Positions 15,368 to 39,635 are shown, counted from the stretch's first letter. The stretch: DNA of 64,000 bases from an uncultured Solirubrobacterales bacterium (GCA_963714635.1 CAVQPM010000005.1:200852-264851); one strand, 5' to 3'. Numbers and translations are program-made. Notes: a model not told the origin generated them from the sequence alone.

Positions 15368-15486
15368 CGGTCTGCCTCTCTCGGGGGTTGATGCTGCTTG
15401 TAGCCCCGCCTCGCCGGCCGGTCAAACTCGCCCATCGTTCCACGTTGCTCACCGTCCCGCCTCGCCGGCCGGTCAAACTCGTTCAT
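15364..15486 (-). CDS. candidate 40-codon ORF with an internal duplication, overlapped ATGA-style with both hemE and hemH
   Basis: MNEFDRPARRDGEQRGTMGEFDRPARRGYKQHQPPREADR. Its ATG overlaps the hemE TGA (15483-15486) and its TGA overlaps the hemH ATG (15364-15367). A 26-bp perfect direct repeat lies at 15405-15430 and 15456-15481. Confidence 0.3.
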   Translation of the reverse strand: MNEFDRPARRDGEQRGTMGEFDRPARRGYKQHQPPREADR

Positions 15487-18960: not shown

Positions 18961-19124
18961 CTAGGGTCTGCGGGTAGGCCCGGCCGGCCATCTCGGGGTC
19001 ACGCGCCGACGGTTCCAGCCGCCCCTCCGGTAGAATATTATGCCGAATGGCACAGCCGGCTTTATGGTCGGCTGGTTGGGTGTCGAGACCTACGGCAACC
19101 CACGGAGCCAAGGAGCGAAGGAAG

Positions 19125-20567: not shown

Positions 20568-20568
20568 T

Positions 20569-21255: not shown

Positions 21256-21327
21256 CAGGCCCCTCTGTACCGAAAATCTACCTCCGGGCGGATTGATTCG
21301 CGCGGTTCGGGGGGTGAAAATCTCGGC

Positions 21328-22239: not shown

Positions 22240-22240
22240 G

Positions 22241-23302: not shown

Positions 23303-23339
23303 GGGCCGGAAGCGGCGCCGGCGCAAGGAGACACTGCGG

Positions 23340-24314: not shown

Positions 24315-24519
24315 CGGCGCTGCTCCCGTCGGCGCGCCCGCGCAACCGGCGAGCGGCACAGGGCCCCGTGTATCCTCCGGGCCATGCGGCCAGGCGCCCC
24401 GCCGGTCCGCCTCTACCCAAGACATACCGCCCGGCGGATTGCGCTCGACCGCGCAAGACGGGTTAATCCGCGTCGATGGTTACTACACGCGAGCTGGCCC
24501 TTGCCCAGGAGGTCGACTG

Positions 24520-25641
24520 ATGAGACGATTGGTGCTGCGCCCGATGGGATTGGTGCTGCCCCCGATGGTCGGTTGCGTCCTGTGGCTGCTTGCCGGCGCG
24601 TCCCCCGCCCTGGCGGACGCCGGCCCGCACATGAAGGGCCAGGGACTCACCCCGGACACCTGCGCGGCCTGCCACCGGGCCCACACCGGCCAGGCCCCCT
24701 ATCTGCTGAAGGAAAAGCAGGAACAGCTCTGCTTCACCTGCCATGGCTCCTCGGCCAGCGGCTCCGCCCTCGACGTCAAGGACGGCGTCGGCTATTCCGA
24801 AGAAGGCCATCAAGGCACAGCGGAAGCCCTGCGCGGCGGCGGCTTCAAGTACGCCCTGATCAACACGGGCGAAGAAGGGGTTGTAAAGGTGACGGGCGCA
24901 GAAGGCTCGCACGGTATCCCGACGGTCGAAGCGACCATCAAGACGCTGCCGGCATCGGAACTCCGGCCGGCGACCTCGTCCCACTCGGTCAACGAATCGA
25001 CCCAGACGGCCTGGGGCGGCGGTCCGATCAGCTCAACTGCAAGCTACGGCACCGCAATGAACCTGACCTGCGGCGCCTGCCACGACCCGCACGGAAACGG
25101 ACACTACCGGATCCTGAGGCCCATCCCGGTCGGATCGAGCACGGAAAAGGAAAAGGGCAAAGGCGTGGAAATCCCCGACGAACCGAAACCCCACGTCTAC
25201 ACGACGACCAACTACTGGGCAACCTGGAGCGAAAAGGACCCGGAATTCGAGTTCAAGATCTCCGAATGGTGCGCCACCTGCCACACGCGCCTGCTCGACG
25301 GCAGCAAAAGCGCCACGACCAGCAGCACTGACGCGGTGTTCACCTACCGCCACCGCACCAACTACACGCTGGAAGAATGGGAAAAATCTCCTCCGAAACT
25401 GGGTTCCGGAGGAGGGTACTCCGGCGCCAAGCCGAGCTGCATCCAGTGCCACGTCGCACACGGCACGGACGCCACAATGGGCGAACACTCGGAATCGGTC
25501 ACCCTGCCCGGACAGACGACAAACCCGTCCAGGGAAATCGAACGAGTCAAGGGCTCCGGCAATGTGACAGAAATCTCCGAAGACAGCTACCTGTTGAGGC
25601 TCAACAACAGGGGCGTCTGCGAGACCTGCCACAACAAGTAG
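24520..25641 (+). CDS. secreted hexaheme c-type cytochrome (doubled-CXXCH family), paralog B
   Basis: Six CXXCH motifs: CAACH, CFTCH, CGACH, CATCH, CIQCH, CETCH. Signal peptide ends ALA/DAGPH. AGGAGG lies upstream of ATG 24520. Confidence 0.85.
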   Translation: MRRLVLRPMGLVLPPMVGCVLWLLAGASPALADAGPHMKGQGLTPDTCAACHRAHTGQAPYLLKEKQEQLCFTCHGSSASGSALDVKDGVGYSEEGHQGTAEALRGGGFKYALINTGEEGVVKVTGAEGSHGIPTVEATIKTLPASELRPATSSHSVNESTQTAWGGGPISSTASYGTAMNLTCGACHDPHGNGHYRILRPIPVGSSTEKEKGKGVEIPDEPKPHVYTTTNYWATWSEKDPEFEFKISEWCATCHTRLLDGSKSATTSSTDAVFTYRHRTNYTLEEWEKSPPKLGSGGGYSGAKPSCIQCHVAHGTDATMGEHSESVTLPGQTTNPSREIERVKGSGNVTEISEDSYLLRLNNRGVCETCHNK

Positions 25642-25700: not shown

Positions 25701-26006
25701 TATATGTGATCGCAGCTGTCTCTCCAGCGGAGGCATCGGGTTGCTTTGCTCCTCCACGACGGCGCCCATCGCCCTGGACGCGATTGGCGAGGGTGGGCGC
25801 CCTCGGCGGACGCCCTCGGCTATGCCGCGTCCAAGCCTGTCTGACGGATACAGGCGCGGGTGTATCGCTTGGATGATCGGCCCGGCTCACCTCTACCGGA
25901 AACATGCCAGCCGGCGGGTTGCGCGTGAAAAGGCTGCGCTCGAAACTGTCCAAGGTTGATTAATTCATCAGCCCCCGGAAAGAGAGCAGACGAAAGGGCC
26001 GACACC

Positions 26007-26813
26007 ATGACGCGCTCCGCAAGACCGAGACTACGCGCAAGGGCCGGCCGGCGCGATTCCCTCCGCCGCCTTGGGCTCACACCCGAGGCGGGCGCTGAGG
26101 ACGTGCAGAGAGCGCACGCGGAGCTGCTGAGCTTCCTTCAGGGCGCGCCGGAGGGTGTGCGCCGCTGGGCCAAAGAGGAGATCGCCACGGCCGACGACGC
26201 GTACAGGGCGCTATCGGATCCGGCCGACATGAGGGCGGCGCGCCGCAGCTCGCCGTTGAGGCGAATCGCCACCGGGACACTCGCTCTCGCCGTAACCGCC
26301 GGTGTTGTCGTCGGCGTCTACGACATGGGAGGCAGTCAGGGAGCGGCGAAGCCCCAGGCGTCCGGGACGGCCCGACCGCAAGGCCTCACCCCCAGCGAGC
26401 AGGCACGCGTCGCCCAGTTGATGAGCGAAGTCAAGGCGTCCCCGAGGGACGTCTCGGCGATGATCGAGCTCGGCAACATCTTCTTCGAAGCCCGCAGCTA
26501 CAGCAGCGCCCGCGACTGGATGAAGCGGGCCGTCGCGGTGGAACCACGGAACTCGGCGGCGCGCCTGCCGCTCGGCGCGGCGGAGTTCAACACCGGCGAC
26601 ATCGCCGGCGCCCGGCGCGACTGGCTCCGCGTCGTCGCGGCCGACCCGAAGAGCGTCGAAGCGTACTACGACCTCGGCTTCCTGTACGTGAGCAGGGAAC
26701 CGGCCGACATGGCGGATGCGAAGAAGATGTGGGCCAAGGTCGTCGCGCTGGCTCCCAACTCCGCCCTGGCCAAGACGGTCGCCACGCACATCAAGAGCTT
26801 GGAAAAGAAATGA
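26007..26813 (+). CDS. membrane-anchored TPR protein, CcmI/NrfG-like putative apocytochrome chaperone with a degenerate J-like N-terminus
   Basis: N-terminal LGLTPEAGAEDVQRAHAELLSFL (J-domain-like, no HPD), a central TM helix, and C-terminal TPRs. Its stop overlaps the ccdA ATG (ATGA). Confidence 0.6.
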   Translation: MTRSARPRLRARAGRRDSLRRLGLTPEAGAEDVQRAHAELLSFLQGAPEGVRRWAKEEIATADDAYRALSDPADMRAARRSSPLRRIATGTLALAVTAGVVVGVYDMGGSQGAAKPQASGTARPQGLTPSEQARVAQLMSEVKASPRDVSAMIELGNIFFEARSYSSARDWMKRAVAVEPRNSAARLPLGAAEFNTGDIAGARRDWLRVVAADPKSVEAYYDLGFLYVSREPADMADAKKMWAKVVALAPNSALAKTVATHIKSLEKK

Positions 26814-27568
26814 ACGAGGTCGGCATCCCAGTCGCCTTCTTGGCGGGGATCATCTCCTTCGCGTCGCCGTGCTGTTTGCCGCTCGTTCCCGGCTACGTCA
26901 GCTACATGGTCACCACCCGCGACGGCAGCCAGGCGGCGTCGCGTCGTGTCGCCTTCTTGCACGCACTCGCCTTCGTGGCCGGCTTCTCGGTCGTCTTCAT
27001 CGCGATCTGGGCGTCGGTCGGGCTGATCGGCTACGTCTTCCGCGACTACGCCGGGCTGTTGCGGCAGCTGGGCGGGGCGGTCCTCGTCTTCATGGGCCTG
27101 CACGTCGCCGGCCTCATCAGCATCCCGGCGCTCTACCGCGAGAAGCGCCTGCCGATGGGCGGCTTCGCCGGCGACGCCCGCGCCGGCGCCTCGGATCGCT
27201 CGGGAGGGGGAGATGGCGCCCTCAGCGCCCCCGGGTATGGGCGCTCGGCCCTGCTCGGCGTCATCTTCTCGGCTGGCTGGACGCCCTGCATCGGCCCGAT
27301 CCTCGGCGGGATCATCGGCCTCGCCTCGGTCGGCGCGAGTGTCGCTCGGGGCACCGTCCTGCTGCTCGTCTACGCGATCGGGCTGGGCATCCCGTTCATC
27401 CTCGTCGCGCTCGGCGTCACCGCGGTCAGCGACAGGCTCGGCTGGCTGCGCAGGCACAACACCGCGGTCGGCGTCCTGACCGGGGCGATGCTCATCGGGA
27501 TCGGCTTCTTGATGATCACCAACACCTTCGGGCGGCTGTCCGGCTCGCTCCCCCTGATCGAAACGTGA
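26810..27568 (+). CDS. ccdA: cytochrome c biogenesis thiol-reductant transporter CcdA (DsbD family)
   Basis: FLAGIISFASPCCLPLVPGY and a second conserved WTPCIGPILG motif. Polytopic. Confidence 0.88.
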   Translation: MNEVGIPVAFLAGIISFASPCCLPLVPGYVSYMVTTRDGSQAASRRVAFLHALAFVAGFSVVFIAIWASVGLIGYVFRDYAGLLRQLGGAVLVFMGLHVAGLISIPALYREKRLPMGGFAGDARAGASDRSGGGDGALSAPGYGRSALLGVIFSAGWTPCIGPILGGIIGLASVGASVARGTVLLLVYAIGLGIPFILVALGVTAVSDRLGWLRRHNTAVGVLTGAMLIGIGFLMITNTFGRLSGSLPLIET

Positions 27569-27576
27569 GCGGCGAG

Positions 27577-29055
27577 ATGAGCCAGACCATCAGCGCAGCC
27601 CCACGTCCCGGGACCCCCGTCTCGGCAGGTGCCGAGGTTCGCCGTCCCGCCACGCCGCCGCACGTCTGGGTCTTCCGCCAGCTGACCTCGATGCGGGTGG
27701 CGCTGGTGCTGCTGCTCGTGCTGGGCCTGCTCACCCTGGCGGGCACGCTTCTCAGCCAAGCTCCCGATGCTGTGGCGGGCAACCAGGCGGCCTACAGCGA
27801 GTGGCTCAACATGGTCCGCCCGAAGTACGGGGGCTGGACCTCGGTCCTGAGCACGCTCGGGCTCTTCTCGGTGTTCTCCTCGATCTGGTTCAGGGGGACG
27901 CTGCTGCTGCTGTCGGCCAGCTTGATCATGTGCTCGCTGCGCCGCTCTCCCGGCCTGTGGAGGACGGCGGCCAGGCCGCGGATGGTCATGACAAAGGCCT
28001 TCTTCGAGCGTGCGCCCCACAGGGCGATGGTCCCCTCGCAGCAGGATCCCGGCGCCGCCCTCGTCGCGCTGCGCGCCGGCTTTCGCAAGAACCGCTTCCA
28101 CGTCGCAACCGCGACAGACGGCGAGGACGTCCACGTCTGCGCCGACCGCTTTCGCTGGGCGCCCCTCGGCAGGATCCTCATCCACATGAGCTTCGTCCTC
28201 ATCCTCGCCGGCGCTCTGCTCACGGCGACGGGCGGCTTCCGGGACGAATCGCTCGTCGTTCCGATCGGCGACAGGGTGAACGTGGGACATGGCACCGGCC
28301 TGGCGGTCGAAGCGAAGTCGTTCGCCGACTCCTACTATCAGAGCGGCGCTCCCCGTAACTACGAGAGCCAGCTCGTCCTCTATGAGGGCGGCGCTCGCGT
28401 GAGGACGCAGGAAGATCGCGTCAACCACCCGGTGCGCTACGACGGCGTCACCTTCTACCAGTCCTTCTTCGGGCCCGCCGTGGAGATGCGGGCGAGGATG
28501 AGTGACGGCCGCGTCGTGTTCAACCAGGGCGTGGCACAGCAGTACTCCTCGCAGAACGAAAAGGAGCGCATCGGCCGCTTCGCGCTCCCGCAGCAGGGCC
28601 TGACGGTCTTCGTGGTCTCACCGGCCTCTGGGGAAGCAGACCCGGGAATCCCTGTCGGCGAGACGCGGCTCGAAGTCTATAGGAACACGAGCGAGACGCC
28701 GGTCGGGATCCAGCTTCTCTCGCCGGGCAGGCCGGCGACGATCGGCGGCGTCGCCTTCACGTTCGTGCGCGAACTCGAGTTCACGGGCCTGATCGTCGCT
28801 CACGATCCGGGGTCGACCATCGTCTGGATCGGCTCGGCGCTCTTGATTCTCGGCCTGGTCATGGTCTTCTACTTCCACCACCTGCGTGTCAGAGCCGTGA
28901 TCCGCCCCGGGGCGGGCGGCAGCGAGATCGCCGTCGCCACGATCGAGCGCCGCGACGAGGGCTCCGCGGCTCAGTTCGAGCGTCTCGTCGAAGACATAAG
29001 GCGTGCCGTGAGTCGCGGCGCGCAACCTCACAGAGGAGCCGGAGCCAATGCTTGA
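27577..29055 (+). CDS. resB: System II cytochrome c biogenesis protein ResB/Ccs1
   Basis: FRQLTSMRVALVLLLVLGLLTLAGTLLSQ N-terminus, a large extracytoplasmic domain, and a C-terminal TM. Overlaps resC by 8 nt. Confidence 0.85.
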   Translation: MSQTISAAPRPGTPVSAGAEVRRPATPPHVWVFRQLTSMRVALVLLLVLGLLTLAGTLLSQAPDAVAGNQAAYSEWLNMVRPKYGGWTSVLSTLGLFSVFSSIWFRGTLLLLSASLIMCSLRRSPGLWRTAARPRMVMTKAFFERAPHRAMVPSQQDPGAALVALRAGFRKNRFHVATATDGEDVHVCADRFRWAPLGRILIHMSFVLILAGALLTATGGFRDESLVVPIGDRVNVGHGTGLAVEAKSFADSYYQSGAPRNYESQLVLYEGGARVRTQEDRVNHPVRYDGVTFYQSFFGPAVEMRARMSDGRVVFNQGVAQQYSSQNEKERIGRFALPQQGLTVFVVSPASGEADPGIPVGETRLEVYRNTSETPVGIQLLSPGRPATIGGVAFTFVRELEFTGLIVAHDPGSTIVWIGSALLILGLVMVFYFHHLRVRAVIRPGAGGSEIAVATIERRDEGSAAQFERLVEDIRRAVSRGAQPHRGAGANA

Positions 29056-29926
29056 GCTATCCCAGTACTGCGTCTTCGCCGCCACCGTCGCGGTGGGCGT
29101 GGCGCTGATCTCCTACGTCGCGGCCTTCGCGTCCAGCCGCATCGGCCGGGCTCGCGCGGCGCTCGTGGTCGAGGGCGTGGACGGGCAGGTGAGCACCGCA
29201 GCTCCTGCCGACGCTACGAGCGCCGGCGCCGTCTTCGGCACGATGACGGCATGGCTGGCGCTCGCCTTCCTCTCCGCGGCGCTCGCCTTCCGCTGGGGAG
29301 CGACCGGACACGGCCCGTTCGCCAACATGTACGAGTTCTCGGTCGCCTTCGCCTGGGGCGCCCTGGTCATCAACGCCTACTTCATACGGCGCTATCGCCA
29401 ATGGGCTCTCAGCGCGATCGTGCTTCCGATCGCGCTGGGGATGCTCCTGTATGCGACGACGGTTCCGAGCACGGCCGAGCCGCTCGTCCCGGCGCTTCAG
29501 AACAACCTGCTGCTGACGGTTCACGTGGCCACCGCGGTGATCGCGTACGGAGCCTTCGCGGTCGGCTTCGCGGCGGCGCTCCTCTATCTGGTCCAAAGCG
29601 CCGGCCAGCGGCGGCACCTGCCCAACCGTGGGCTGATGGACGACCTCTCCTACAGAGCGACCCGGATCGGCTTTCCGTTCCTGACCGCGACGATCGTCCT
29701 GGGCGCCGTCTGGGCCGACATCGCCTGGGGCAAATACTGGAGCTGGGACCCCAAGGAGTCCGCCTCGCTGGTCACCTGGATCGCCTGCCTGGCCTACCTG
29801 CACGCCCGCAGCGCACGCGGCTGGCGCGGCCGGCGAGCGGCGCTGCTGCTCATGCTCGTCTTCGCGGCGACCCTCTTCTGCTACTTCGGGAACCTCTTCT
29901 TCGGGGGCCTGCACAGCTATGGCTAG
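29048..29926 (+). CDS. resC: System II cytochrome c assembly protein CcsA/ResC
   Basis: Trp-rich heme-handling motif WGKYWSWDPKE. Polytopic, with conserved His residues. Confidence 0.9.
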   Translation: MLELSQYCVFAATVAVGVALISYVAAFASSRIGRARAALVVEGVDGQVSTAAPADATSAGAVFGTMTAWLALAFLSAALAFRWGATGHGPFANMYEFSVAFAWGALVINAYFIRRYRQWALSAIVLPIALGMLLYATTVPSTAEPLVPALQNNLLLTVHVATAVIAYGAFAVGFAAALLYLVQSAGQRRHLPNRGLMDDLSYRATRIGFPFLTATIVLGAVWADIAWGKYWSWDPKESASLVTWIACLAYLHARSARGWRGRRAALLLMLVFAATLFCYFGNLFFGGLHSYG

Positions 29927-30518
29927 CCGGCGGGGCCGGCTCAGCCGGCTCAGAACGCTCCTGGTGACGGGCATGACCGCCGCCGTCATCCTGGCGGTCG
30001 CCTACCTGGCGGATCGGCCGGCGTCGGGCGGCAGCTTCACGTCGGTCCTCGTCTCGGGTGTCGCCGCGGGCCCGGCGCCGGAAGTCGGAAAGCCGGCCCC
30101 CAACTTCAGCGCCACGACGATCGAAGGCGCGAAGGTCACGCTGAAGAGCCTCCGGGGCCATCCGGTCTGGCTCACCTTCGGAGCCCCCTGGTGCCAGCCG
30201 TGCAGGGCGGAGAACCCGGACGTCGAGGCTGCCTACGAGAAGCGCCGCGCGCAGGGCCTGGAGGTCCTGGCGGTCTTCGTCCAGGACAGCAGGTCGGACA
30301 TCGAGGAATACGCCAAGCGGACGGGCCTGACGTATCCAAAGGTCGACGACTCCAGCGGCCGGATCGCATCCAGCTACCGAATCGTGGGGATCCCATCCCA
30401 CTTCTTCATCGACAGCTCCGGGATCGTGCGGGAGATCAGAATCTCCTCTCTGAACCCGTCGACGATTGACGAAAACCTCGGGGAGATCGGAGTCGATGTT
30501 GCCGGACCTGAAAGGTGA
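29919..30518 (+). CDS. resA: membrane-anchored thioredoxin-like ResA/TlpA
   Basis: TM anchor plus the FGAPWCQPCRAE redox motif. Confidence 0.85.
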   Translation: MASRRGRLSRLRTLLVTGMTAAVILAVAYLADRPASGGSFTSVLVSGVAAGPAPEVGKPAPNFSATTIEGAKVTLKSLRGHPVWLTFGAPWCQPCRAENPDVEAAYEKRRAQGLEVLAVFVQDSRSDIEEYAKRTGLTYPKVDDSSGRIASSYRIVGIPSHFFIDSSGIVREIRISSLNPSTIDENLGEIGVDVAGPER

Positions 30519-32154
30519 GCCGGATGACGCATCGGGCGAGTCCGCGCGCGAGCGCAGCCGCCGGTTCGGCGCAGCCGCGGGCAGTCACCGCGCCGGCGGC
30601 GCCCGCCACGGTCGACTGGGCGCAGCCGCGGTCCCTCGCCGCATCGGCGAGCTCGTCGCTCGGCGCATCCGGCCGCCGCGCAGCGGGCGTGGCTTTGCCG
30701 TCTCGCTGCTCGCCGTGGGGGGGCTCTGCGGGGTGGCGGCGATCGGCGGCAGCGCCTTCCAGGCGTTCAGTGAGACCGAAGGCTTCTGCTCGCGATGTCA
30801 CACGATGGCCCCGGAGGCGGCCGCGCACAAGCTGTCGGTCCACCGCGACGTCGCCTGCGGCGAGTGTCATGTCGCGCCGGGCATGGTCGGCTTGGTCAAG
30901 TCGAAGCTGCGAGGGGCGACTCAGGTGCTCGATCTGGTCGCCGGCACCTACCCGAAACCGATCCCGCCGCCGGACCCCAGCCTGCTTCCGCCCCCGGAAA
31001 AGACGTGCATGAAATGTCACCCCCTGAACACCATCACCGGTGAAGACGGACAGATAAAGCTCATACTGCACCACACCTACCGCGAAGACGAAGCGAACAC
31101 GCGCGAAACGGTCGCCGTCATGGTCCGTCCGTACCGTCTCGGGGAAGGGGCGGCGAGCCGCGGCGCGCACTGGCACGTCGAAGTGAAGATGGAATACGCG
31201 AGCCCCGAAAAGGACTCCCAGAAGATCAATTGGATTCGAGTCACCTACAAGGACGGCCACACCGAAGAATGGGTCGCCCGCTCGCAGGTCGGCGTCTCGA
31301 GCGACGTACGACCGGACGTCGGCCGTCTGACGCGGACCGATTCGGTACGCCAGGTGACGTGCATCACTTGCCACAATCGCGTCGGCCACGAATTCCCGCT
31401 TCCCGGCGAAGTGATCGACAGCGCAATCGCGGCAGGCAAGATCAGCCAGTCCCTGCCCTATATAAAGCGTGAAGGGGTCGAGCTCCTCGGCAAGCGCTAC
31501 CGATCGACCGGGGAAGCGGACAAGGCGATCGAAGGCATCCGCGGATACTACGCGGCGAAGTACCCGCTGCTCTCGAGAACCCGTGGACGGGAAGTCAACC
31601 GTGCTGTCGATCAGCTCAAGCAGATCTACCCGCTCGTCGCCGACCCCGCCATGAACGAGATCTCGGCCGACTACCCGAACAACCTCGGCCACCAGTCGGG
31701 CCCCGGCTGCCTGCGCTGTCACGATGGCTCCCATTTCAAGGTCGGCCCCGAAGGTCGCCTCCTGAACGCGACGATCCCCTGGGAATGCACGACGTGCCAC
31801 ACCTTCCCGCAGACCGGCAGAACGGTCTCCAGCCTGTCTGTACTGAATCCGCCCCCCGACCACCAGTCCAAGCTGTGGGTCTTCGAACACGCGCACAACC
31901 CCGCGGCCCTCGAACCAGGTATCGCGAAGAACAGCTTCTGCGCGAACTGCCACTCCTCCGGCGCGGAGAAGGTGAACCACGAAGAAATGCTCTACCACCA
32001 CCCGCAGGTGATCGAAAAGGCCAGTCTCCAGGCGTGCGGGTACTGCCACCGGGAAGCCTTCTGTGCCAGGTGCCACAAACAACCGGTCCTCGGCTCGAGC
32101 GTGTTCGACGGCCCGGGCAACGCGGCGCTCCTGAGCGACACGGGGCGAAAATGA
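30496..32154 (+). CDS. membrane-anchored nine-heme NapC/NirT-family cytochrome c (putative quinol dehydrogenase with extended C-terminal heme domain)
   Basis: TM helix (FAVSLLAVGGLCGVAAIGG), then the NapC/NirT-type start FCSRCHTM...SVHRDVACGECH. Nine CXXCH in total: CSRCH, CGECH, CMKCH, CITCH, CLRCH, CTTCH, CANCH, CGYCH, CARCH. Confidence 0.85.
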   Translation: MLPDLKGEPDDASGESARERSRRFGAAAGSHRAGGARHGRLGAAAVPRRIGELVARRIRPPRSGRGFAVSLLAVGGLCGVAAIGGSAFQAFSETEGFCSRCHTMAPEAAAHKLSVHRDVACGECHVAPGMVGLVKSKLRGATQVLDLVAGTYPKPIPPPDPSLLPPPEKTCMKCHPLNTITGEDGQIKLILHHTYREDEANTRETVAVMVRPYRLGEGAASRGAHWHVEVKMEYASPEKDSQKINWIRVTYKDGHTEEWVARSQVGVSSDVRPDVGRLTRTDSVRQVTCITCHNRVGHEFPLPGEVIDSAIAAGKISQSLPYIKREGVELLGKRYRSTGEADKAIEGIRGYYAAKYPLLSRTRGREVNRAVDQLKQIYPLVADPAMNEISADYPNNLGHQSGPGCLRCHDGSHFKVGPEGRLLNATIPWECTTCHTFPQTGRTVSSLSVLNPPPDHQSKLWVFEHAHNPAALEPGIAKNSFCANCHSSGAEKVNHEEMLYHHPQVIEKASLQACGYCHREAFCARCHKQPVLGSSVFDGPGNAALLSDTGRK

Positions 32155-33572
32155 CGAATACGCCGCAGACGTCGGTTCATGAGGAGTGGCTGACGCTGCA
32201 CGAGGCCTGCTCGCTCATCGGCGTGTCGCCGGCCACGCTGCGCCGCTGGAGCAACAACGGGGACATCAGCACATTCACGACGCCCGGAGGCCACCGTCGT
32301 TATGCCAGGTCGGCGATTCTCGCCCTCCTGCCGGCGCCGAGGGCGGTGTCCCCTGCCACACCCCCTGCCGCACCCTCCGCAGCGTCCTCGGCCGCGGCCG
32401 ACCCGCGCGCCGGAACCGGCGCGCCCCTCTCCTCCCTGCTGGCCCTCGTCGCCCAGGCGCGCCGGGTTTCGACCGCGGCGCGCGAGGCGTTCGCGACCGA
32501 GCTGGACGCGCTCGAGCGCAGCGAGGCGGCGATCGTCGTCCACACCTGCCATCGGGTCGAGCTGTACGTCGCTCTCGAGGGGTTCGGAGAGCGGCCGCTT
32601 CCGGACCTGCCGCCGGGAGCGCAGCGTTTCGAGGGGATCGAGGCGGCACGGCACCTCGTCTCGGTCGCCTGCGGGCTGGACAGCGCGGTGCTCTGCGAGA
32701 ACCAGGTCCTCCACCAGCTCCGCGAGACCCTCACCCGGCGCCGCGCCGAGCATCCGCTGGACCCGACCCTCGATCGGCTCTTCCAGGTCGCGCTCCAGGC
32801 GGGCCGGCGCGCTCGCAGCCGGTTCGGCGGCTCGACGCGATCGCTGGCCGACGTCGCGCTCGAGTGGGTGGAAGAGCGGGCCGGAGCGCCCGAGGGGCAG
32901 CGAATCCTCGTCGTCGGGGCGGGCGTCATGGGGCGCCTCGCCGCGCTTGCCGCGGCCAGGAGGGGGGCCGAGGTGATCGTCATGAGCAGGACCGGCGAGC
33001 GAGCCGCCGCTCTCGCACGCGAGGTGGGCGGACGGGCGATCCCGTTCGAGGGCGAGGGCGCCGTGCCGCGCCTCGCCGGCGCGATCGTGGCGCTCCGCGG
33101 CAGCTGGCCGCTCGCCGGCGAGGATGCCCGCAAGCTCGCCGAGAGCGGCGCGATCGTCGTTGACATGTCCTCGCCGGCGGCCGTCCCGGATGCGCTCCAG
33201 GCCGCGCTCGGCGACCGCCTCGTCTCGGCTGACGACCTCGCCCGGGGAGAGGACGTCGAGCTGACCGACCGGCTCCGCGGCCAGCTCGAGAAGCTCGCGG
33301 CCGAATCCGTCGAGTCGTACTTCCGGTGGCTGGGCTCGCGCAACGTCGTGCCGGCGCTCCAGGCGATCGGCCAAGCCGCGGACGAGCAGCGCCGCGGCGA
33401 GCTGGACTGGCTGTTTCGCCGTCTGCCCGGCCTCGCCGAAAAGGAGCGCTCGCTGATCGAGCAGATGAGTCACCGGCTGGTGGCGGACATCCTGCACGCG
33501 CCGCGATCGGCGCTCAACGCGGATGACGGCGGTCAGCTCGCGCAGGCCGCCCGAGAGCTCTTCGGAACGTGA
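32151..33572 (+). CDS. MerR/excisionase-type HTH domain fused to a full-length glutamyl-tRNA reductase (HemA) paralog
   Basis: N-terminus WLTLHEACSLIGVSPATLRRWSNNGDISTFTTPGGHRRY, then a Pro/Ala linker. GluTR-like domains follow: VVHTCHRVELYV (compare VISTCNRTEVYL in hemA at 34885-36264), GLDSAVLCENQVLHQL, Rossmann ILVVGAGVMG, and a dimerisation tail. The ATG overlaps the NapC-like stop (ATGA). Confidence 0.8.
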   Translation: MTNTPQTSVHEEWLTLHEACSLIGVSPATLRRWSNNGDISTFTTPGGHRRYARSAILALLPAPRAVSPATPPAAPSAASSAAADPRAGTGAPLSSLLALVAQARRVSTAAREAFATELDALERSEAAIVVHTCHRVELYVALEGFGERPLPDLPPGAQRFEGIEAARHLVSVACGLDSAVLCENQVLHQLRETLTRRRAEHPLDPTLDRLFQVALQAGRRARSRFGGSTRSLADVALEWVEERAGAPEGQRILVVGAGVMGRLAALAAARRGAEVIVMSRTGERAAALAREVGGRAIPFEGEGAVPRLAGAIVALRGSWPLAGEDARKLAESGAIVVDMSSPAAVPDALQAALGDRLVSADDLARGEDVELTDRLRGQLEKLAAESVESYFRWLGSRNVVPALQAIGQAADEQRRGELDWLFRRLPGLAEKERSLIEQMSHRLVADILHAPRSALNADDGGQLAQAARELFGT

Positions 33573-33579
33573 GCTCGAC

Positions 33580-34884
33580 ATGCGGTTCTCCTCGGAGAGC
33601 GTAATACCGGTTCGCCCAAGGATGGCCGGAGCTCGGTCTTGGATGCCGCGGCCGCCGCGTGTGCCGCGAGGGACGCGTGTGCCGCGGTGGCTGTGGGTCC
33701 TCGGCCCGGGGTTGATGGTGATGTTCGCCGACACCGACGCGGGCAGCGTGATCACGGCTTCCCAGTCGGGCGCGAGATGGGGCTACCGGCTGCTGGCGCT
33801 GCAGGTGCTGCTCGTACCCGTGCTTTACCTGGTCATGGAGCTGACAGTTCGGTTGGGGATCGCGACTGGCAAGGGACATGCGCAGCTGATCCGTGAGCGC
33901 TTCGGCCGCCGCTGGGCGCTCATATCGGTCGGCACTCTGGCGGTGAGCGCGCTCGGCGCGTTGGTGACGGAGTTCGCGGGGGTCGCCGGGGTCGGGGAGA
34001 TGTTCGGGATCTCGCCGGCGCTGACCGTGTTGCCGGCAGCGGCGCTGCTGGTGGGGTTGGTCGTCTCGGGCGGCTACCGGCAGGTGGAGGTGGTCGGGAT
34101 CTGCCTGGGACTGTTCGAGCTCGCCTTCGTCGTGGCGGCGGTGCTCGCCCACCCGAGCGCACACGCGCTCGCCACGGGGATCGCCAGCCAGCCGCTCGGC
34201 CAGCCCGGCTATCTGACGCTCATCGCGGCGAACGTCGGGGCGGTCGTGATGCCGTGGATGCTCTTCTACCAGCAGGGCGCCGTGATAGAGAAGGGCCTGA
34301 CCGCGCGCGATCTGCGCCCGGCGCGGATCGACACTGCGGCCGGCGTGCTGCTCACGCAGCTGATCATGGGCGCGGTGCTGGTGGTGACCGCGGCGAGCTT
34401 CCACGGTCGCGCCGGGGGCTCGCTACAGAGCGTCGGGGCGATCGCCGGAGCGCTCGCGCCGCTGCTCGGCGGCTCGACGAGTCGCATCGTGCTCGCGTGC
34501 GGGATGCTCGGAGCCGCGCTGGTCGCGAGCATCGTCGTCTCGCTCGCGGCCGCCTGGGCGATCACCGAGACCGCGGGGCGGCCGCGCAGCCTGAGCGACG
34601 GTTGGCGCCGCGCGCCACACTTCTACGGCCTCTACGCGGGCGCCGTCGCGTGCGGCGCGGTGCTCGTGCTCGCCAGCCACTCGCTCGTACGGCTCGCGAT
34701 CAACGTCGAGGTCCTCAACGCCCTGCTGCTGCCGCTCGTGCTGGGCATGCTCGTCCTGCTCGCCCACCGGGTGCTGCCCGCACCACACGCGCTGCGGCGC
34801 GGCCACCGCGCCGCCGTCAGCTTCGCGGCGATCGCCGTCGCACTGGTCGGGCTCATCTGGCTGGGCTTTGCGTTCGGACTCTGA
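33580..34884 (+). CDS. mntH: Nramp-family divalent metal (Mn2+/Fe2+) transporter
   Basis: GPGLMVMFADTDAGSVITASQSGA and the MELTVRLGIATGK motif. Polytopic. Start uncertain (33580, 33622 and others). Confidence 0.88.
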   Translation: MRFSSESVIPVRPRMAGARSWMPRPPRVPRGTRVPRWLWVLGPGLMVMFADTDAGSVITASQSGARWGYRLLALQVLLVPVLYLVMELTVRLGIATGKGHAQLIRERFGRRWALISVGTLAVSALGALVTEFAGVAGVGEMFGISPALTVLPAAALLVGLVVSGGYRQVEVVGICLGLFELAFVVAAVLAHPSAHALATGIASQPLGQPGYLTLIAANVGAVVMPWMLFYQQGAVIEKGLTARDLRPARIDTAAGVLLTQLIMGAVLVVTAASFHGRAGGSLQSVGAIAGALAPLLGGSTSRIVLACGMLGAALVASIVVSLAAAWAITETAGRPRSLSDGWRRAPHFYGLYAGAVACGAVLVLASHSLVRLAINVEVLNALLLPLVLGMLVLLAHRVLPAPHALRRGHRAAVSFAAIAVALVGLIWLGFAFGL

Positions 34885-36264
34885 TCAGGAGCCCTTGCGG
34901 GCGCTCTCGATCGAGCGCACCTCTGCCAGCTTGGCCTCTCCCTCGCCGGCCGGCTCCTCGCGTGCGCCAGTGTGGTCGCCGTCCTCGCCGAGGCCGAACA
35001 GCTCGCGCACGAGCTGCAGGCTCGCGTGGCCGCGCTCGGCCGAGAAGCTGCGCAGGCGGATCGTCGGCTCGTGCAGCAGGCGGTTGATCACCGCTCGCGC
35101 GACGAGCTCGACACGTGCGAGGTCGCGCTCGGAGGCCGACTCCCAGCGGCCGGCGTTCTCGGCGAGCACCTGCTCGACGAGCGCGTCGGCGTGCTCGCGC
35201 AGGGCGGATACCGTGGGCAGCGTCTCGAGCTGGCCGAGCCAGCGTGCGAAGCGGCGGATCTCCTCCTCGACGATCTCCTCGGCCTGCGGGACGACCTCGG
35301 CGCGCGCGCCGAGGTTGCGCGCGACGACAGACTGGAGGTCGTCGATGTCATACAGCGTGACTCCGTCGAGATCGCCGCAGCGCGAGTCGATGTCGCGCGG
35401 GACCGCGATGTCGATCAACAGCAACGGCCGTCCGCTCCGCTCCGCCATCACCAGCTCGAGCTCCTCGCTGCCGAGGATCGGGTGGGGAGAGGAGGTCGAG
35501 GCGAGCACGATGTCCGCGTGCAACAGCTGGTCTGGGAGGCCGTCGAGCCCGACGACCGAGCCGCCGAAGCGCTGGGCGAGGCTGAGCGCGCGGTCGGCGT
35601 GGCGGTTGGCGACGAAGATCGTGCCGGCGCCCTGGTCGGCGAGCGCCCGGGCGGTCAGCTCGCTCGTCTCGCCGGCGCCGATGATCACCACGTGGCGCTC
35701 ACGCAGACCGCCGAGCACGTCCTGGGCGAGGTCCACCGCCACCGAGGGCACGCTCACGCGAGAGGACCCGATCCCCGTCTCCGAGCGCACGCGCTTGCCC
35801 GTCGTGAGCGCCGCCGCGAACAGGCGGTTGGAGAGGGGCCCGGTGGTCCCCGCGCGCATCGCCCCCTCGAATGCGCGCTTGACCTGGCCCTGGATCTCGG
35901 CCTCGCCGACGATCATCGACTCCAGCCCCGCCGTGACTCGGTAGAGCTGGCGCGCCGCGTCGCAGTTGCGCGGCGAGTAGATCTCCTGTGCGAGCTCGGT
36001 GGGACGGATGCCCGCGCGCCGCGCGAGCATGCCGAGCACGTCCGCCTCCGCCTGCACCGGGTCGCCGACGACGAGGTACACCTCGGTGCGGTTGCACGTC
36101 GAGATCACGATCGCCTCGTGCGCGTGCGGGCTGTGGATGACGTCGTTCGCGAACTCGACCGCCTGCGATTCGGTGAACGCGAGGCGCTCGCGTAGCGCGA
36201 CGGGCGCCGTCTTGTGAGAGATGCCGAGTGCGAGCAGCTCGCTTGCCCGCCTGCCCCCAGTCAT
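34885..36264 (-). CDS. hemA: glutamyl-tRNA reductase (canonical)
   Basis: LLALGISHKTAPVALRE, the catalytic STCNRTEVY, GEAEIQGQVK, and Rossmann VVIIGAGETS. Confidence 0.93.
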   Translation of the reverse strand: MTGGRRASELLALGISHKTAPVALRERLAFTESQAVEFANDVIHSPHAHEAIVISTCNRTEVYLVVGDPVQAEADVLGMLARRAGIRPTELAQEIYSPRNCDAARQLYRVTAGLESMIVGEAEIQGQVKRAFEGAMRAGTTGPLSNRLFAAALTTGKRVRSETGIGSSRVSVPSVAVDLAQDVLGGLRERHVVIIGAGETSELTARALADQGAGTIFVANRHADRALSLAQRFGGSVVGLDGLPDQLLHADIVLASTSSPHPILGSEELELVMAERSGRPLLLIDIAVPRDIDSRCGDLDGVTLYDIDDLQSVVARNLGARAEVVPQAEEIVEEEIRRFARWLGQLETLPTVSALREHADALVEQVLAENAGRWESASERDLARVELVARAVINRLLHEPTIRLRSFSAERGHASLQLVRELFGLGEDGDHTGAREEPAGEGEAKLAEVRSIESARKGS

Positions 36265-36298: not shown

Positions 36299-36484
36299 TC
36301 ATACGAGCTCCCGCTCTCTGTCCTCGTCGGCGCTGCGCTCCTGCAGTTCCAGCAGCCGACGTTCCACGCGGCCGAGGCGCACCGCCATGATCACCACGTA
36401 GATGAGCACCAGCGCGAAGACGACTATGTAGGCCGCCGCCACATAGCCGTCGTTGGATGGGAGTGTGCTCGCGAGCGGGGTCAT
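36299..36484 (-). CDS. ccmD: CcmD-like small single-TM heme exporter subunit
   Basis: 61 aa with one TM helix (YVAAAYIVVFALVLIYVVIMA). Its ATG overlaps the ccmC stop (ATGA), and its position after ccmC fits. Confidence 0.55.
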   Translation of the reverse strand: MTPLASTLPSNDGYVAAAYIVVFALVLIYVVIMAVRLGRVERRLLELQERSADEDRERELV

Positions 36485-37161
36485 CGGAAACCGAGTGTGC
36501 GGGAGCGGACTTTCAAGAGTATGCGCGTGCGCTTGGCCGCCAGCTCATAGGAGCAGAGCGTCGCGAACAGCAATGCCATCGCCGCGAGCGAGACCAGGAA
36601 GGTGAGGGCCATCGAGGACGGCAGGTTCGAGGTGGCGCCGAGCACGCGCGGGTGAACATAGGAGGCGGAGAGACGGACGGCGATGAAGTTGAGCGGCACG
36701 AACGCGCCCGCCGTGATCGCGAACACCGATGCATAGCGCCCCTGGCGCTCGGGATCCTCGATGGCGAAGCGAAGCGGCTGGTAGGTGGCGTACAGAAGGA
36801 ACACGATCAGGAACGAGACGAGCGTCGGCTCGTCCCACACCCACCAGTGCCCCCACGATGCGCGCGCCCAGATCGAGCCGGTGAGCAGCACGGCGACGCC
36901 GAAGATGAGGCTCATGTGGATCGCCACATAGGAGCGCAGGTCCCAGCGCTGATCGCCGGTGCGCAGGTGCGCGATGGCGAGCAGGCCGCCGATCACGAAG
37001 CCGCACAGCGCGACGATCGCCAGGGGGACATGCAGGTAGAAGATCTTCTGGAGGAAGCCCTGGTCGGCTTCGATGGGGGCGTAGAAGAAGACGAGCGACA
37101 GCGACACGCAGAACGCGAGCACGGTCGATATGGAGAGCGCGCGGAGCGAGGGGGTGCGCAT
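36481..37161 (-). CDS. ccmC: heme exporter protein CcmC
   Basis: Trp-rich motif WARASWGHWWVWDEPT. Polytopic, 226 aa. Confidence 0.9.
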   Translation of the reverse strand: MRTPSLRALSISTVLAFCVSLSLVFFYAPIEADQGFLQKIFYLHVPLAIVALCGFVIGGLLAIAHLRTGDQRWDLRSYVAIHMSLIFGVAVLLTGSIWARASWGHWWVWDEPTLVSFLIVFLLYATYQPLRFAIEDPERQGRYASVFAITAGAFVPLNFIAVRLSASYVHPRVLGATSNLPSSMALTFLVSLAAMALLFATLCSYELAAKRTRILLKVRSRTLGFR

Positions 37162-37170
37162 CGTTTGCCT

Positions 37171-37836
37171 TCAGTCCTCCAGGAGGAAGTCGAATACGGC
37201 GTAGGCGATGAGCCCGAAAACGAGATCATAGAGCGCGAGCGTCGCAATCCAGCGCAGCGCGGGACCGCCTGGATGGGTGCTCGCCAGCAGCGGAGCGCTC
37301 GCGCGGGCGCAGCCGATCACGATCGGCACGAGCAACGGCAGCGCCAGCAGCGGACCGAGCAGGTCGCGCGCGCGCGTGCGAACGGCCAGCGCGGCCACGA
37401 GCGTGCCGATCGTCGCCACGCCGAGGTCCCCGAGCGCGAGCGGGGCCAGCAGGCCCGGGAGCGCCTGGCCGAGCGGGGGGCCGAGCAAGAGCAGGCCGAA
37501 CGCCGGCACGGCGACGAGCTCGAGCACGAGCAGGTAGCAGAGCAGCGCGAGCGCCTTGGCAAACAGCAGCGCGGTGCGATCGACCGGCGCGAGCAAGAAG
37601 CCGTCAAAGCCGCCCTGATCGGCGTCGGCGACGAACAGGCGGTTGATGCCGAGCATCGCCGCGAACAGCAGCGTCACCCACAGGATGCCCGCCGCCTCCT
37701 GGCCGCTCACCGTGTTCTGGTTGAGCGCGAAGTGGAACACGACGAACGTCGTGACGGCGAACAGGGCCATGCCGGGGACGGACTCCAGCGTGCGCATCTC
37801 GACGAGCAGCTCCTTGCGCACCAGCGCACGTACCAC
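37171..37836 (-). CDS. ccmB: heme exporter permease CcmB
   Basis: Polytopic CcmB-like sequence. GTG 37836 gives the typical 221-aa length (VVRALVRKELLVEMRTLES...). The ORF-track start at 37953 would read through three palindromes. Confidence 0.8.
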   Translation of the reverse strand: MVRALVRKELLVEMRTLESVPGMALFAVTTFVVFHFALNQNTVSGQEAAGILWVTLLFAAMLGINRLFVADADQGGFDGFLLAPVDRTALLFAKALALLCYLLVLELVAVPAFGLLLLGPPLGQALPGLLAPLALGDLGVATIGTLVAALAVRTRARDLLGPLLALPLLVPIVIGCARASAPLLASTHPGGPALRWIATLALYDLVFGLIAYAVFDFLLED

Positions 37837-37846
37837 CTTTGCTGTT

Positions 37847-37918
37847 CCGACCGGTACATGTACCGGTCGGCCCGACGGCGCATGCGCCGTCGGGGACAAC
37901 GCCGCATGCGGCGTTGTC
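37847..37918. repeat. three abutting 24-bp perfect palindromes, each centred on CATG, in the ccmA-ccmB spacer
   Basis: CCGACCGGTACATGTACCGGTCGG (37847-37870), CCCGACGGCGCATGCGCCGTCGGG (37871-37894) and GACAACGCCGCATGCGGCGTTGTC (37895-37918). I verified each by hand as its own reverse complement. Confidence 0.9.
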
Positions 37919-37949
37919 GTCCCCGAGGATGTGGATGTCTTGGACGCGC

Positions 37950-38681
37950 TCACCGGTACAGCCCTGCCACGTCGTCTGGGTCGATGCTGTCGGCGCCACC
38001 CAGCAATGCCACGCGCCCGCCGCGCAGGCCGAGCACCACGTCCGCCTCGGCCAGTCCCCGCAGCGGGTCGTGGCTTGTGAGCACGCGTGTGCGGCCGCTG
38101 TCCACGCCGATCAGCGGCTCCACCAGCTCGATGGCGGCCGGGTCGAGGTTGGCGTAGGGCTCGTCGAGCAGCAGCAGCTCCGGATCGTGGAGCGTCGCGC
38201 GGGCGACCGCCACGCGCTGGACCATTCCTCGCGAGAGCGTCCTCACGGGCTCATCGGCGCGCTCGATCATCGCGACCGCCCGCAGCCGCTCCTCGACGCG
38301 CTGCGGCGTCACGCCGTGCAGCTGCGCGTGGTAGCGCAGGTTCTCGCGGGCGGTCAGCTCCCTGTAGAGCAGCGGCTCGTGGCCCAGCAGGCCGATCCGG
38401 CCGCGCGTCCGCCACGCGTCGCGTGGCAGCTCCTCGCCGAGCACCCTCACGCGGCCAGCGTGGGGCCGCAGCAGCGTCGCCAAAACTCGCAGCAGCGTCG
38501 TCTTGCCGGCGCCGTTGGGGCCGAACACGACGAGCGTCCGGCCGCCCGCGAGGGTCAAAGAAACGCCGGCCAGCGCCGCTCGTTCGCCGTAGTTGCGCCG
38601 CAGGGCGTCCAGCTCGACCGCCGGTCCGCTCTCGACGGCGACTCCGGTCGGGGCCTCGGCGTGGACTTCGAGGTCCGCCAT
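37950..38681 (-). CDS. ccmA: heme exporter ABC ATPase CcmA
   Basis: Walker A GPNGAGKTTLLRVLA, ABC signature LSRGMVQRVAVA, and Walker B LLLLDEP. Confidence 0.85.
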   Translation of the reverse strand: MADLEVHAEAPTGVAVESGPAVELDALRRNYGERAALAGVSLTLAGGRTLVVFGPNGAGKTTLLRVLATLLRPHAGRVRVLGEELPRDAWRTRGRIGLLGHEPLLYRELTARENLRYHAQLHGVTPQRVEERLRAVAMIERADEPVRTLSRGMVQRVAVARATLHDPELLLLDEPYANLDPAAIELVEPLIGVDSGRTRVLTSHDPLRGLAEADVVLGLRGGRVALLGGADSIDPDDVAGLYR

Positions 38682-38698: not shown

Positions 38699-39388
38699 TC
38701 AGACCGGGGATAGGCGCTGCTCGTACTCGCCGCGCGCGCGCGCGATCAGCTCGCGAACGGCCGATTCGCCTGTGCCCTTCGGGGTACGGCCGTCGCGCAG
38801 CAGCGCCACCGGGTCGGGCTCGCCGTTCACGATCGACTCGAAGAAGACCTTGCGGTCCTGATAGGTGGGCAGCGTCGCCTTCGCCCAGCCGCGCGCCTCG
38901 TTCAAGAGGACCGCGAGCTGCGCATACGGCTCCCCGAAGGCCTCTGCCACTTCGCGCTTGATGCGCTTGGCAAGCGCCGGCGAGGCGCCGGCCGTTGAGA
39001 TCGCGATCGCGAGCGGGCCCGTCCTCACGATCGCCGGCAGGATGAAGTTGCACAGCGGCGGCACATCGACGACGTTGACGAGCATCGCCCTGCGCTCCGC
39101 GTCCTCGTACACCGCGATGTTCACGTCCGTCTCCGAGGTGGCGGCGATCGCCATGAACACGCCCTCCAGATCACTCGGCCCGCCATAGGCGCGCCGCTCC
39201 CACCGAATCGACCCCTCCGCCGCGTAGCGCTCGAGCTGCGGGTGCGCCTCGGGCGCTATCAGCGTGAGGAGTCCATCGCACGCGAGCAGGCCCTCGACCT
39301 TCTCGAGGCCCACATCGCCTCCCCCTACGACCACGCAGCGCCGGCCGCTCAGCTTCAGGCAGGCGATGTAGAACGGCGTTGAGAGCAT
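38699..39388 (-). CDS. sirC: precorrin-2 dehydrogenase / sirohydrochlorin ferrochelatase (siroheme synthase N-terminal type)
   Basis: Rossmann [15 protein letters not shown] and CysG-N/Met8-like layout. Start trimmed to ATG 39388. Confidence 0.78.
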
Positions 39389-39635
39389 GTCCGCCACGCA
39401 GCTCTGGTCGCAGATCCCCCTGCGCAGCTGGCAGACGCACTCCTTTCCTGTATAGGCCTGGGCGGGCATTGCCTAAGGGTAGCCCCAGCGCGCGGCTGCG
39501 GTCCGCCGTACGTGGTTTTCTCGGATGAATCCTTCGATTGCTTCAAGTTTTACGAAAGGGTGCCGAAAAGGTGTGTCGAACATGTCAATCGTGAGTCAAC
39601 TGCGGCTCTCGTCTCCGCGATAGGGGGATCCAACC

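Follow-up and report, generated by a model that had tools for sequence, protein, structure and literature searches.

Can an enzyme of the haem pathway carry its own DNA-binding domain, and would such a protein act as an enzyme, as a regulator or as both? The question is raised by an open reading frame (ORF) in a 64,000-nucleotide stretch of DNA, referred to here as the window, from a soil actinobacterium, an uncultured member of the Solirubrobacterales (GCA_963714635.1, CAVQPM010000005.1:200852-264851). Directly behind a nine-haem cytochrome gene, this ORF joins a helix-turn-helix (HTH) domain to a complete glutamyl-tRNA reductase (GluTR). A first-pass annotation had interpreted the GluTR part as a duplicate of the canonical HemA encoded nearby, recruited as the ligand-sensing domain of a DNA-binding regulator. 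The DNA-binding fold, the conserved fusion and the link to a promoter were borne out by our analysis, but not the recent hemA duplicate recruited as a sensor. The gene and its segments are as follows, with AlphaFold2 confidence given as the predicted local distance difference test (pLDDT).

32151 to 33572, plus strand: HTH-GluTR fusion gene, a single ORF of 473 residues plus stop
32175 to 32336, plus strand: BldC-type winged HTH, residues 9-62 (HTH_17 match, identity to BldC, pLDDT >90)
32337 to 32426, plus strand: Pro/Ala linker, residues 63-92, predicted to be disordered (pLDDT <50, fast divergence)
32427 to 32825, plus strand: GluTR catalytic domain, residues 93-225 (GlutR_N match; Cys133 codon at 32547-32549)
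32826 to 33260, plus strand: NADPH-binding Rossmann domain, residues 226-370 (Shikimate_DH match, glycine motif)
33261 to 33569, plus strand: spinal helix and dimerisation domain, residues 371-473 (GlutR_dimer match)

The combination of an HTH, a linker and a complete three-domain GluTR in one gene is a real architecture. Pfam matched HTH_17 at residues 13-60 (38.1 bits, cutoff 27), and GlutR_N (residues 108-223, 81 bits), Shikimate_DH (242-364, 39.9 bits) and GlutR_dimer (379-472, 66.7 bits) each scored over its curated cutoff. The AlphaFold2 model of the protein, built from 70 sequences, reached a mean pLDDT of 86.8, with high values in the GluTR body as well as the HTH and long helices at 373-424, 430-456 and 462-471, and its top Foldseek matches were GluTR structures (1gpj, 5yjl, 5che and 4n7r; E 2e-18 to 1e-12). 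The DNA-binding-type N-terminus and the Pro/Ala linker described in the first-pass annotation correspond to a MerR/BldC-type fold, which also found BldC structures in the PDB, and to the predicted disordered segment, whose length differs among aligned homologues. The start ATG overlaps the TGA stop codon of the upstream cytochrome gene (ATGA, 32151-32154); this coupling had been noted before, and a count returned the nine CXXCH motifs of the cytochrome. The domain combination HTH_17, GlutR_N, Shikimate_DH and GlutR_dimer also proved to be conserved among Solirubrobacterales loci.

Relatives were scanned with one genome per species, which gave 80 loci, all from metagenome-assembled genomes (MAGs), with flanks of about 10 kb to either side of the gene, and gene order was tabulated by BLAST against labelled reference proteins. 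Two arrangements carry the comparison.

Solirubrobacterales, 17 loci and one frameshifted locus: HTH and GluTR in one ORF after genes for TPR, CcdA, ResB, CcsA and ResA proteins and a multihaem cytochrome, often with an Nramp gene next
Chloroflexota classes and MAGs of Dermatophilaceae, Micrococcales and Phycicoccus, 52 loci: an ORF for an HTH plus a C-domain of about 150 residues, directly upstream of a GluTR ORF

The fusion was in frame and free of stop codons in the 17 fused loci, which come from several projects, the eighteenth (L063) being split by a frameshift, and fused homologues from 56% to 90% identity all keep the HTH. In the split form, a regulator of about 225 residues with a BldC-type HTH and a helical sensor-like domain precedes the enzyme gene; in locus L001 the two genes overlap by ATGA, and the HTH of that regulator reads WLSIHEASAMIGVSPATLRRWSDAGEIEAFTTPGGHRRF against WLTLHEACSLIGVSPATLRRWSNNGDISTFTTPGGHRRY in the window. 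The Chloroflexota pair is followed by hemCD, hemB, hemL, hemE, hemH and a radical-SAM/SPASM gene, and in six Chloroflexota loci System II maturation genes and a multihaem cytochrome gene lie directly upstream of it. In Dermatophilaceae-type loci the pair ends a maturation and cytochrome cluster with no hem genes after it, so that an association of the GluTR gene with hemL or other hem genes, present in Chloroflexota, is absent from these loci and from the window. No separate canonical-type hemA was found within 10 kb in the 80 scanned loci, and in the Chloroflexota hem operons that contain hemL the GluTR lineage described here was the only GluTR-type gene found within about 10 kb.

The HTH of the window protein, together with the LLPA motif that follows it, matches a Dermatophilaceae regulator at 74% identity across 58 residues (tblastn), and tblastn with two regulators found no match to the regulator C-domain anywhere in the window. 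Because split pairs occur elsewhere and the C-domain is absent here, the window gene is a fusion of two neighbours with the regulator C-domain deleted; the comparison thus shows the fused form to derive from neighbouring regulator and enzyme genes, with the sensor-like domain lost immediately behind the conserved LLPA motif. Triple fusions of HTH, sensor-like domain and GluTR (624-625 residues) also exist, at 2060-3937 in L086 and in P0065 and P0263; they occur in three data sets, directly after a multihaem cytochrome gene, and P0262 likewise unites HTH, C-domain and GluTR in one protein. The neighbour-joining tree does not settle the number of fusion events, P0067 being basal yet having the gene order of the window's clade.

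Two further observations concern these loci. In L085 (5587-8004; GCA_040960375.1), the closest unfused relative, cytochrome, HTH and sensor-like domain form one ORF of 805 residues with a repeated Pro-rich linker, followed by the GluTR gene with an ATGA overlap; such a membrane topology would be unusual in a real protein, and the ORF may reflect a lost stop codon or an error. The hem operon of L001 ends in the radical-SAM/SPASM protein (15270-16499), as it does with equivalents in most Chloroflexota loci, and related genes lie near several fused loci. This domain combination recalls AhbD, a hint that the coproporphyrin-dependent pathway may end here in an oxygen-independent step.

The separate regulator has 1656 relatives in the database, labelled 'excisionase family DNA binding protein' in IMG, and several of them carry a precomputed RsbRD_N match. 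Its AlphaFold2 model (pLDDT 84.3) consists of a winged HTH and then a helical bundle. Foldseek superposed the HTH on BldC-DNA complexes with template modelling (TM) scores of 0.82-0.86 and root-mean-square deviations of 1.0-1.6 Å, and matched the bundle weakly to sensor-globin domains (probability 0.96, E = 0.2-0.5). The modelled helical domain resembles RsbR-N or, weakly, sensor globins, but the alignment of the regulator C-domain contained no invariant His and the globin matches were weak, and we therefore make no claim of haem binding for it.

The enzyme half is colinear with the canonical HemA of the window, as the first-pass annotation had stated, but only distantly related to it (BLASTP, residues 94-472 against 8-424, 27% identity, E = 2e-22). 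TCHRVE surrounds the nucleophile in 112 of the 120 best database homologues, and the G[AV]GxxG pattern occurs in 117 of them. Residues T132, C133, R135 and E137 align with T47, C48 (Ser in the crystal), R50 and E52 of the Methanopyrus kandleri enzyme 1gpj, and H168, S178, E183 and Q189 with its H84, S94, E99 and Q105. In alignments of 19 and 70 sequences all of these positions were invariant except H168, which was nearly so; the NADPH-motif glycines G256 and G258 were invariant in both sets, and G261 was invariant in the smaller and nearly so in the larger. The roles of the aligned active-site residues are reportedly those described by Moser and colleagues in 2001. The general GluTR mechanism is restated in PMC6399207.

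These features place the enzyme half, as judged from its sequence, in an old, separate 'TCHRVE' GluTR lineage; it is not a recent copy of the neighbouring hemA. They leave no place for the proposed recruitment of an adjacent hemA duplicate as a sensor, given the low identity, the separate lineage and the intact catalytic residues. The first-pass annotation was right that the nucleophile Cys is retained, but the altered context it saw in HTCHRVE is the signature of the lineage and no local change. Nor is the substrate motif changed as it had supposed: compared with the family consensus GE(D/N)Q(V/I)LHQ(L/V)RE, the window sequence CENQVLHQLRE differs by G to C alone, with Glu183 and Gln189 invariant. 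The residue before the motif Glu is G in 62 and C in 21 of the 83 family proteins with a matchable motif, and 20 of the 21 Cys-bearing proteins are fused proteins. Canonical GluTRs (M. kandleri 1GPJ; Arabidopsis 4N7R, 5CHE and 5YJL) share with the fused enzyme the three domains and their fold, the Cys nucleophile, the Arg, Glu, His, Ser and Gln of the glutamate pocket and the NADPH motif; they differ in having (S/T)CNR(T/V)E where the fusion has TCHRVE, and the fusion adds the N-terminal DNA-binding domain. The N-terminal G-x-S-H-K-T-A-P motif of canonical GluTR is replaced in the fused enzyme. The fused GluTR is apparently a functional enzyme, to judge from this conservation. NCBI labels members of the lineage 'helix-turn-helix domain-containing protein' or 'NAD(P)-binding domain-containing protein'. 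Since both relevant NCBIfam cutoffs were missed and the protein is not a stand-alone BldC, we describe it as a divergent GluTR with a BldC-like HTH and as an equivalog of neither family.

Divergence among the fused loci was uneven along the protein.

HTH: non-synonymous divergence 0.04-0.13
Enzyme domains: non-synonymous divergence 0.04-0.18
Linker: non-synonymous divergence 0.18-0.66, about 2-6 times that of the folded domains

Ratios of non-synonymous to synonymous divergence (dN/dS) were mostly 0.2-0.7, values inflated by constraint on synonymous sites at about 90% GC at third codon positions (GC3), and relative non-synonymous rates alone were used. With divergence low in the HTH and the enzyme and high in the linker, both folded parts are maintained and the linker drifts.

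The HTH of the window protein aligns with BldC over a gap-free stretch of 47 residues at 40% identity, and a PDB search matched it to BldC with E values of 1.8e-6 and 7.1e-6. The DNA-contact residues of BldC are Arg30, Trp31, Gly44, His46, Arg47 and Arg48 (PMC5859096); they align with Arg32, Trp33, Gly46, His48, Arg49 and Arg50 of the fusion protein, while Lys26 and Lys33 of BldC are not conserved (Ala28, Asn35). This pattern suggests an HTH competent for DNA contact. BldC of Streptomyces (PDB 6AMA and 6AMK; PMC5859096) thus resembles the fused domain as a small MerR-like winged HTH with retained contact residues, but it is a free-standing developmental regulator of 68 residues, whereas here the HTH is tethered to an enzyme of 380 residues and, in the relatives of the fusion, is joined to a helical sensor-like domain of about 150 residues. 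Among solved structures, CtMerR (PDB 8JBS/8JBT, E = 1e-6) is the relative of the HTH with the best score, and it has the TPGGHRRF wing in common with this domain. CtMerR is an adenosylcobalamin-dependent light-responsive regulator (PMC11796333) and so offers a case of the same HTH type as the output of a tetrapyrrole-binding module, but the partner there is a B12-binding photoreceptor module and no enzyme, and the similarity is confined to the HTH. Classical MerR proteins continue after the HTH with a long coiled-coil dimerisation helix and a C-terminal effector region, where the fusion has its predicted disordered linker and the related regulators have the helical bundle. A reading of the domain as an excisionase (Xis) or mobile-element protein was rejected, the neighbours in all fused and split loci being cytochrome c maturation or hem genes; the nearest transposase gene lies about 13 kb from the fusion gene.

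A site to which this HTH might bind was sought with a 14-position matrix made from 21 instances, all from the 260 nt upstream of split regulators. Its maximum in the window, over both strands, falls in front of the operon that contains the fusion gene.

25925 to 25947, minus strand: candidate operator, two tandem 9-10 bp units, ACCTTGGAC-AGTTTCGAGC, at the matrix maximum, with binding predicted

The core AGTTTCGAGCGCAG (25934-25947, minus strand) scored 16.9, with a runner-up of 12.5, and sits 60-73 bp before the ATG (26007) that starts the first operon gene. In 16 of the 17 fused loci, no site anywhere in the locus scored higher than the equivalent one. Among loci outside the training set, a matrix peak with the same orientation, immediately before the maturation operon, was the maximum in four Dermatophilaceae-type loci, and in four Chloroflexota loci with a maturation cluster one of the two best sites lay there. 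Tandem repeats upstream of Chloroflexota split regulators read GATTTGAGC-GATTTGCGC and GATTTGAGC-GAATTGAGC-AGGTTCGAGC, and adjacent units were also found on the minus strand of Dermatophilaceae-type promoters (TATTTGAGC-GATTTGGAGC) and of the L009 promoter (GCTTTGAGTA-GTTTCGAGC). Short-range core spacings in the split clade (9 bp four times, and 14, 19 and 20 bp) fit the 9-bp direct repeat of BldC, AATTNNNN(C), which the predicted tandem repeats resemble, most clearly where an AT-rich stretch is followed by C. The candidate operator is thus argued from position and cross-lineage conservation, not from score. It falls within the region at 25.7-26.0 kb which the first-pass annotation had named as a possible target, and would fit a coupling of maturation and tetrapyrrole supply.

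Other features of these promoter regions were also noted. An inverted repeat, GGATACAGGCGCGGGTGTATCGC (GATACA ... TGTATC), at 25846-25868, about 70 bp upstream of the candidate operator, is conserved in fused loci, where a change in one arm is matched in the other (GGGTATAGGTCGCGACCTATACCC in L013, for instance); it may be bound by a second, dimeric regulator or form an RNA hairpin. Rfam matched no RNA family to the conserved upstream block. A weak matrix match, TGATTCGCGCGGTT (21294-21307, score 11.8, tied about seventh in the window), lies in the intergenic gap before a TPR gene at 21328, a region flagged by the earlier annotation too. In eight loci (L043, L045, L047, L048, L051, L052, L054 and L068) a second, divergently transcribed paralogue with HTH and sensor-like domain lies in front of the pair, about 400-1000 bp upstream of the matched gene, and reverse-strand copies of the repeat were present in the shared intergenic region of seven such loci, those with upstream sequence examined.

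We consider it rather probable that the fusion gene encodes a bifunctional protein, a GluTR enzyme that would also be the autoregulator of its own operon. Beyond the observed domain architecture, gene-fusion origin, conservation of the catalytic and DNA-contact residues and location of the motif, we infer here that the protein is catalytically active and binds DNA, and likewise in which direction it regulates and any response it makes to a ligand. The ancestral state, as it emerges from the comparison, is a pair in which a regulator of about 225 residues, often with a 4-bp overlap, precedes the TCHRVE GluTR; in Actinomycetia and several Chloroflexota this pair is also the last part of an operon for System II maturation and an NrfH-like multihaem cytochrome. 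In the fused form the enzyme half would reduce Glu-tRNA to glutamate-1-semialdehyde, providing extra haem precursor when the cytochrome operon is expressed. The GluTR dimer would carry two flexibly tethered HTH domains, the enzyme body taking the place of the lost domain as the dimerisation scaffold, and the pair of HTHs would bind the tandem 9-10 bp GATTYGAGC-like direct repeats at 25925-25947 head to tail, as BldC does. Through such autoregulation of the operon, cytochrome c maturation, apocytochrome and precursor supply would be expressed together. A further step, which we put forward only tentatively, is that the GluTR body serves as a replacement sensor, such that occupancy by haem, Glu-tRNA or NADPH, or haem-triggered proteolysis, alters the binding of the HTH to its operator.

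Several observations weigh against the bifunctional reading, and some of them lend themselves to other explanations. On the side of the operator, the second tandem unit is weak in the window, a maximum of at least 16.9 was reached in 9.5% of shuffled windows, and TTYGAGCG and GTTTCGAGCGC (with up to two mismatches) were no commoner in the window than in shuffled sequence. A sigma-70 scan of 25.6-26.1 kb and 30.4-36.6 kb found nothing beyond chance. Solirubrobacterales and Dermatophilaceae-type loci have promoter blocks that look homologous, and for this reason the Actinomycetota sites are not fully independent. On the side of the enzyme, catalysis by the fused copy is not required because the genome also has a canonical hemA; the fusion protein scores 154.8 bits with the NCBIfam hemA equivalog TIGR01035, below the cutoff of 209.55, compared with 409.4 bits for the canonical HemA of the window; and about 20 close relatives share with the window protein a Cys in place of Gly beside the catalytic Glu183. 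The HTH also scores low, its 46.8 bits with NCBIfam HTH_BldC being below the subfamily cutoff of 77. Finally, fusions occur in several combinations of these overlapping genes, which suggests that fusing them is easy and could be nearly neutral.

The points that concern the enzyme would suit a protein of the kind that the first-pass annotation had in mind, a transcription factor in which the GluTR body has ceased to be an enzyme and is only a ligand-binding and dimerising module, all precursor being made by the canonical hemA, a housekeeping-like gene 1.3 kb away. The missed equivalog cutoff and the Gly-to-Cys change in the fused sub-clade would then be signs of lost catalysis, and a replacement would be needed for the regulator's own sensor-like domain, which is gone. 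We nevertheless think this explanation improbable: the fused clade keeps all the aligned catalytic and substrate residues and the NADPH motif, its catalytic and Rossmann domains diverge at the same slow pace as the HTH, and the lineage is the only GluTR-type gene seen in the Chloroflexota hem operons.

Conversely, the ease with which these overlapping genes combine and the low HTH_BldC score might point to a second GluTR that carries an inert HTH remnant and binds no DNA in vivo. This is a quite unlikely outcome given that the HTH is under the same constraint as the catalytic domain, unlike the drifting linker, that no fused homologue across the identity range has lost it, that the DNA-contact residues of BldC are retained, and that the operon promoters of the fused clade keep the regulator-linked motif, the DNA examined containing no further regulator copy. 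That two genes with an internal enzyme start were merged by an assembly or gene-calling error, as the gene call P0021 (383 residues, beginning after the linker) and the frameshift in L063 might suggest, is scarcely credible: 17 independent MAG loci from different studies share with the window an unbroken ORF, no Met occurs in the linker of the window protein, and homologues have a common MT(N/D)T start overlapping the cytochrome stop codon; the suspicion of an artefact voiced in the first-pass annotation thus falls away.

A bifunctional GluTR would have parallels in other pathways. PutA, BirA and NadR are bifunctional enzyme-repressors, or 'trigger enzymes', in which a pathway enzyme with a DNA-binding domain acts on the genes of its own pathway; the DNA-binding fold of PutA is a ribbon-helix-helix, and the ligand switch of all three has been shown experimentally. 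The likeness lies in the enzyme and DNA-binding domain in one chain, and a candidate operator is present at the promoter of the protein's own operon; the enzymes and DNA-binding folds are different. Within the haem pathway, where bacterial control of the first step is known only in fragments, HemX, HrrSA/ChrSA, DtxR and PerR regulate GluTR or hemA in Gram-positive bacteria, with no unifying model (2024 review, PMC10991733). They control the amount of GluTR or the transcription of hemA, often in response to haem or iron, but none has a BldC-type HTH and none is fused to the enzyme. In the literature searched, including that review, we found no description of an HTH-GluTR fusion, of a regulator-GluTR pair or of a MerR-type hem regulator.

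The genomic setting of the fusion gene is that of a cytochrome c maturation operon.

26007 to 26813, plus strand: TPR/CcmH-like protein, first gene of the operon (Pfam TPR_16 and TPR_CcmH_CycH)
26729 to 27568, plus strand: CcdA-like thiol-reductant transporter (Pfam DsbD_TM, E = 3e-11)
27570 (start approximate) to 29055, plus strand: ResB/CcsB, System II cytochrome c synthase subunit (Pfam ResB, 237 bits)
29048 to 29926, plus strand: CcsA/ResC (Pfam Cytochrom_C_asm, 153.6 bits)
29919 to 30518, plus strand: ResA-like thioredoxin (Pfam AhpC-TSA and Redoxin)
30466 to 32154, plus strand: nine-haem cytochrome c with NapC/NrfH-like N-terminus (nine CXXCH, Pfam Cytochrom_NNT)
33523 to 34884, plus strand: Nramp-type divalent metal (Mn/Fe) transporter (Pfam Nramp, 220.8 bits)

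The TPR/CcmH-like gene occupies the equal position in all fused loci, and the ResB match sits on residues 326-748 of an ORF at 26716-29055. As called, the Nramp ORF begins inside the fusion gene, about 50 bp before its end. In L003, L016, L017 and L063 an Nramp gene comes after the fusion gene, likewise on its strand; L004, L007 and L012 have one close by in the opposite orientation. This recurrence may tie metal supply to the module.

The canonical hemA that served for comparison lies outside this module, as the last of four minus-strand genes.

38699 to 39469, minus strand: SirC-like precorrin-2 dehydrogenase, upstream in the gene row of the canonical hemA
37171 to 37953, minus strand: CcmB, in the same row
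36481 to 37161, minus strand: CcmC/HemX-like Cytochrom_C_asm protein, in the same row
34885 to 36264, minus strand: canonical housekeeping hemA (TIGR01035, 409 bits)

The pairing of the two genes in the first-pass annotation, given without orientation, is corrected accordingly: hemA runs opposite to the fusion gene. The canonical hemA looks like a housekeeping gene because the 120 homologues listed are all at least 81% identical and the named ones belong to Solirubrobacteraceae, which suggests that it is the housekeeping copy and that the fusion gene is an accessory tied to the cytochrome island. The housekeeping GluTR is thus grouped with siroheme and haem-export-type genes.

Further upstream lies an island that looks like an extracellular or periplasmic electron-transfer module (19047-25641), and the remaining features of the window are a transposase and a tRNA gene.

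19047 to 21255: GAF histidine kinase and LuxR-type response regulator, upstream island
21328 to 22239: TPR protein, upstream island
22103 to 23302: NHL beta-propeller, upstream island
23268 to 24314 and 24439 to 25641: two paralogous six-haem cytochromes, upstream island
17963 to 18904, minus strand: DDE transposase gene, about 7 kb upstream of the cytochrome operon
56510 to 56582, minus strand: tRNA gene, the sole Rfam match in the window

In the literature searched, no biosynthetic enzyme of the haem pathway has been described with its own DNA-binding domain. The locus points to an undescribed BldC-type regulator with a sensor-like domain, whose gene is firmly tied in two phyla to that of a distinct GluTR lineage; if this is true, the fusion would be the derived form of a widespread regulator of hem and maturation operons in Chloroflexota and Actinomycetota. 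The TCHRVE lineage is under-annotated, and reconstructions of the haem pathway in groups known only from MAGs could therefore miss a GluTR. The fused form is a compact test case that comprises a single protein, a single promoter fragment and a defined motif. Should the GluTR body also act as a sensor, the first committed enzyme of tetrapyrrole synthesis would report the status of its pathway to the promoter of the maturation and multihaem cytochrome genes, as a trigger enzyme for haem. With predicted operators ahead of the hem operon as well as of the operon for maturation and multihaem cytochromes, haem synthesis and cytochrome c production would be jointly controlled, and this control, if true, would explain how haem supply is matched to apocytochrome and maturation capacity in organisms that make haem-rich cytochromes for respiration or extracellular electron transfer.

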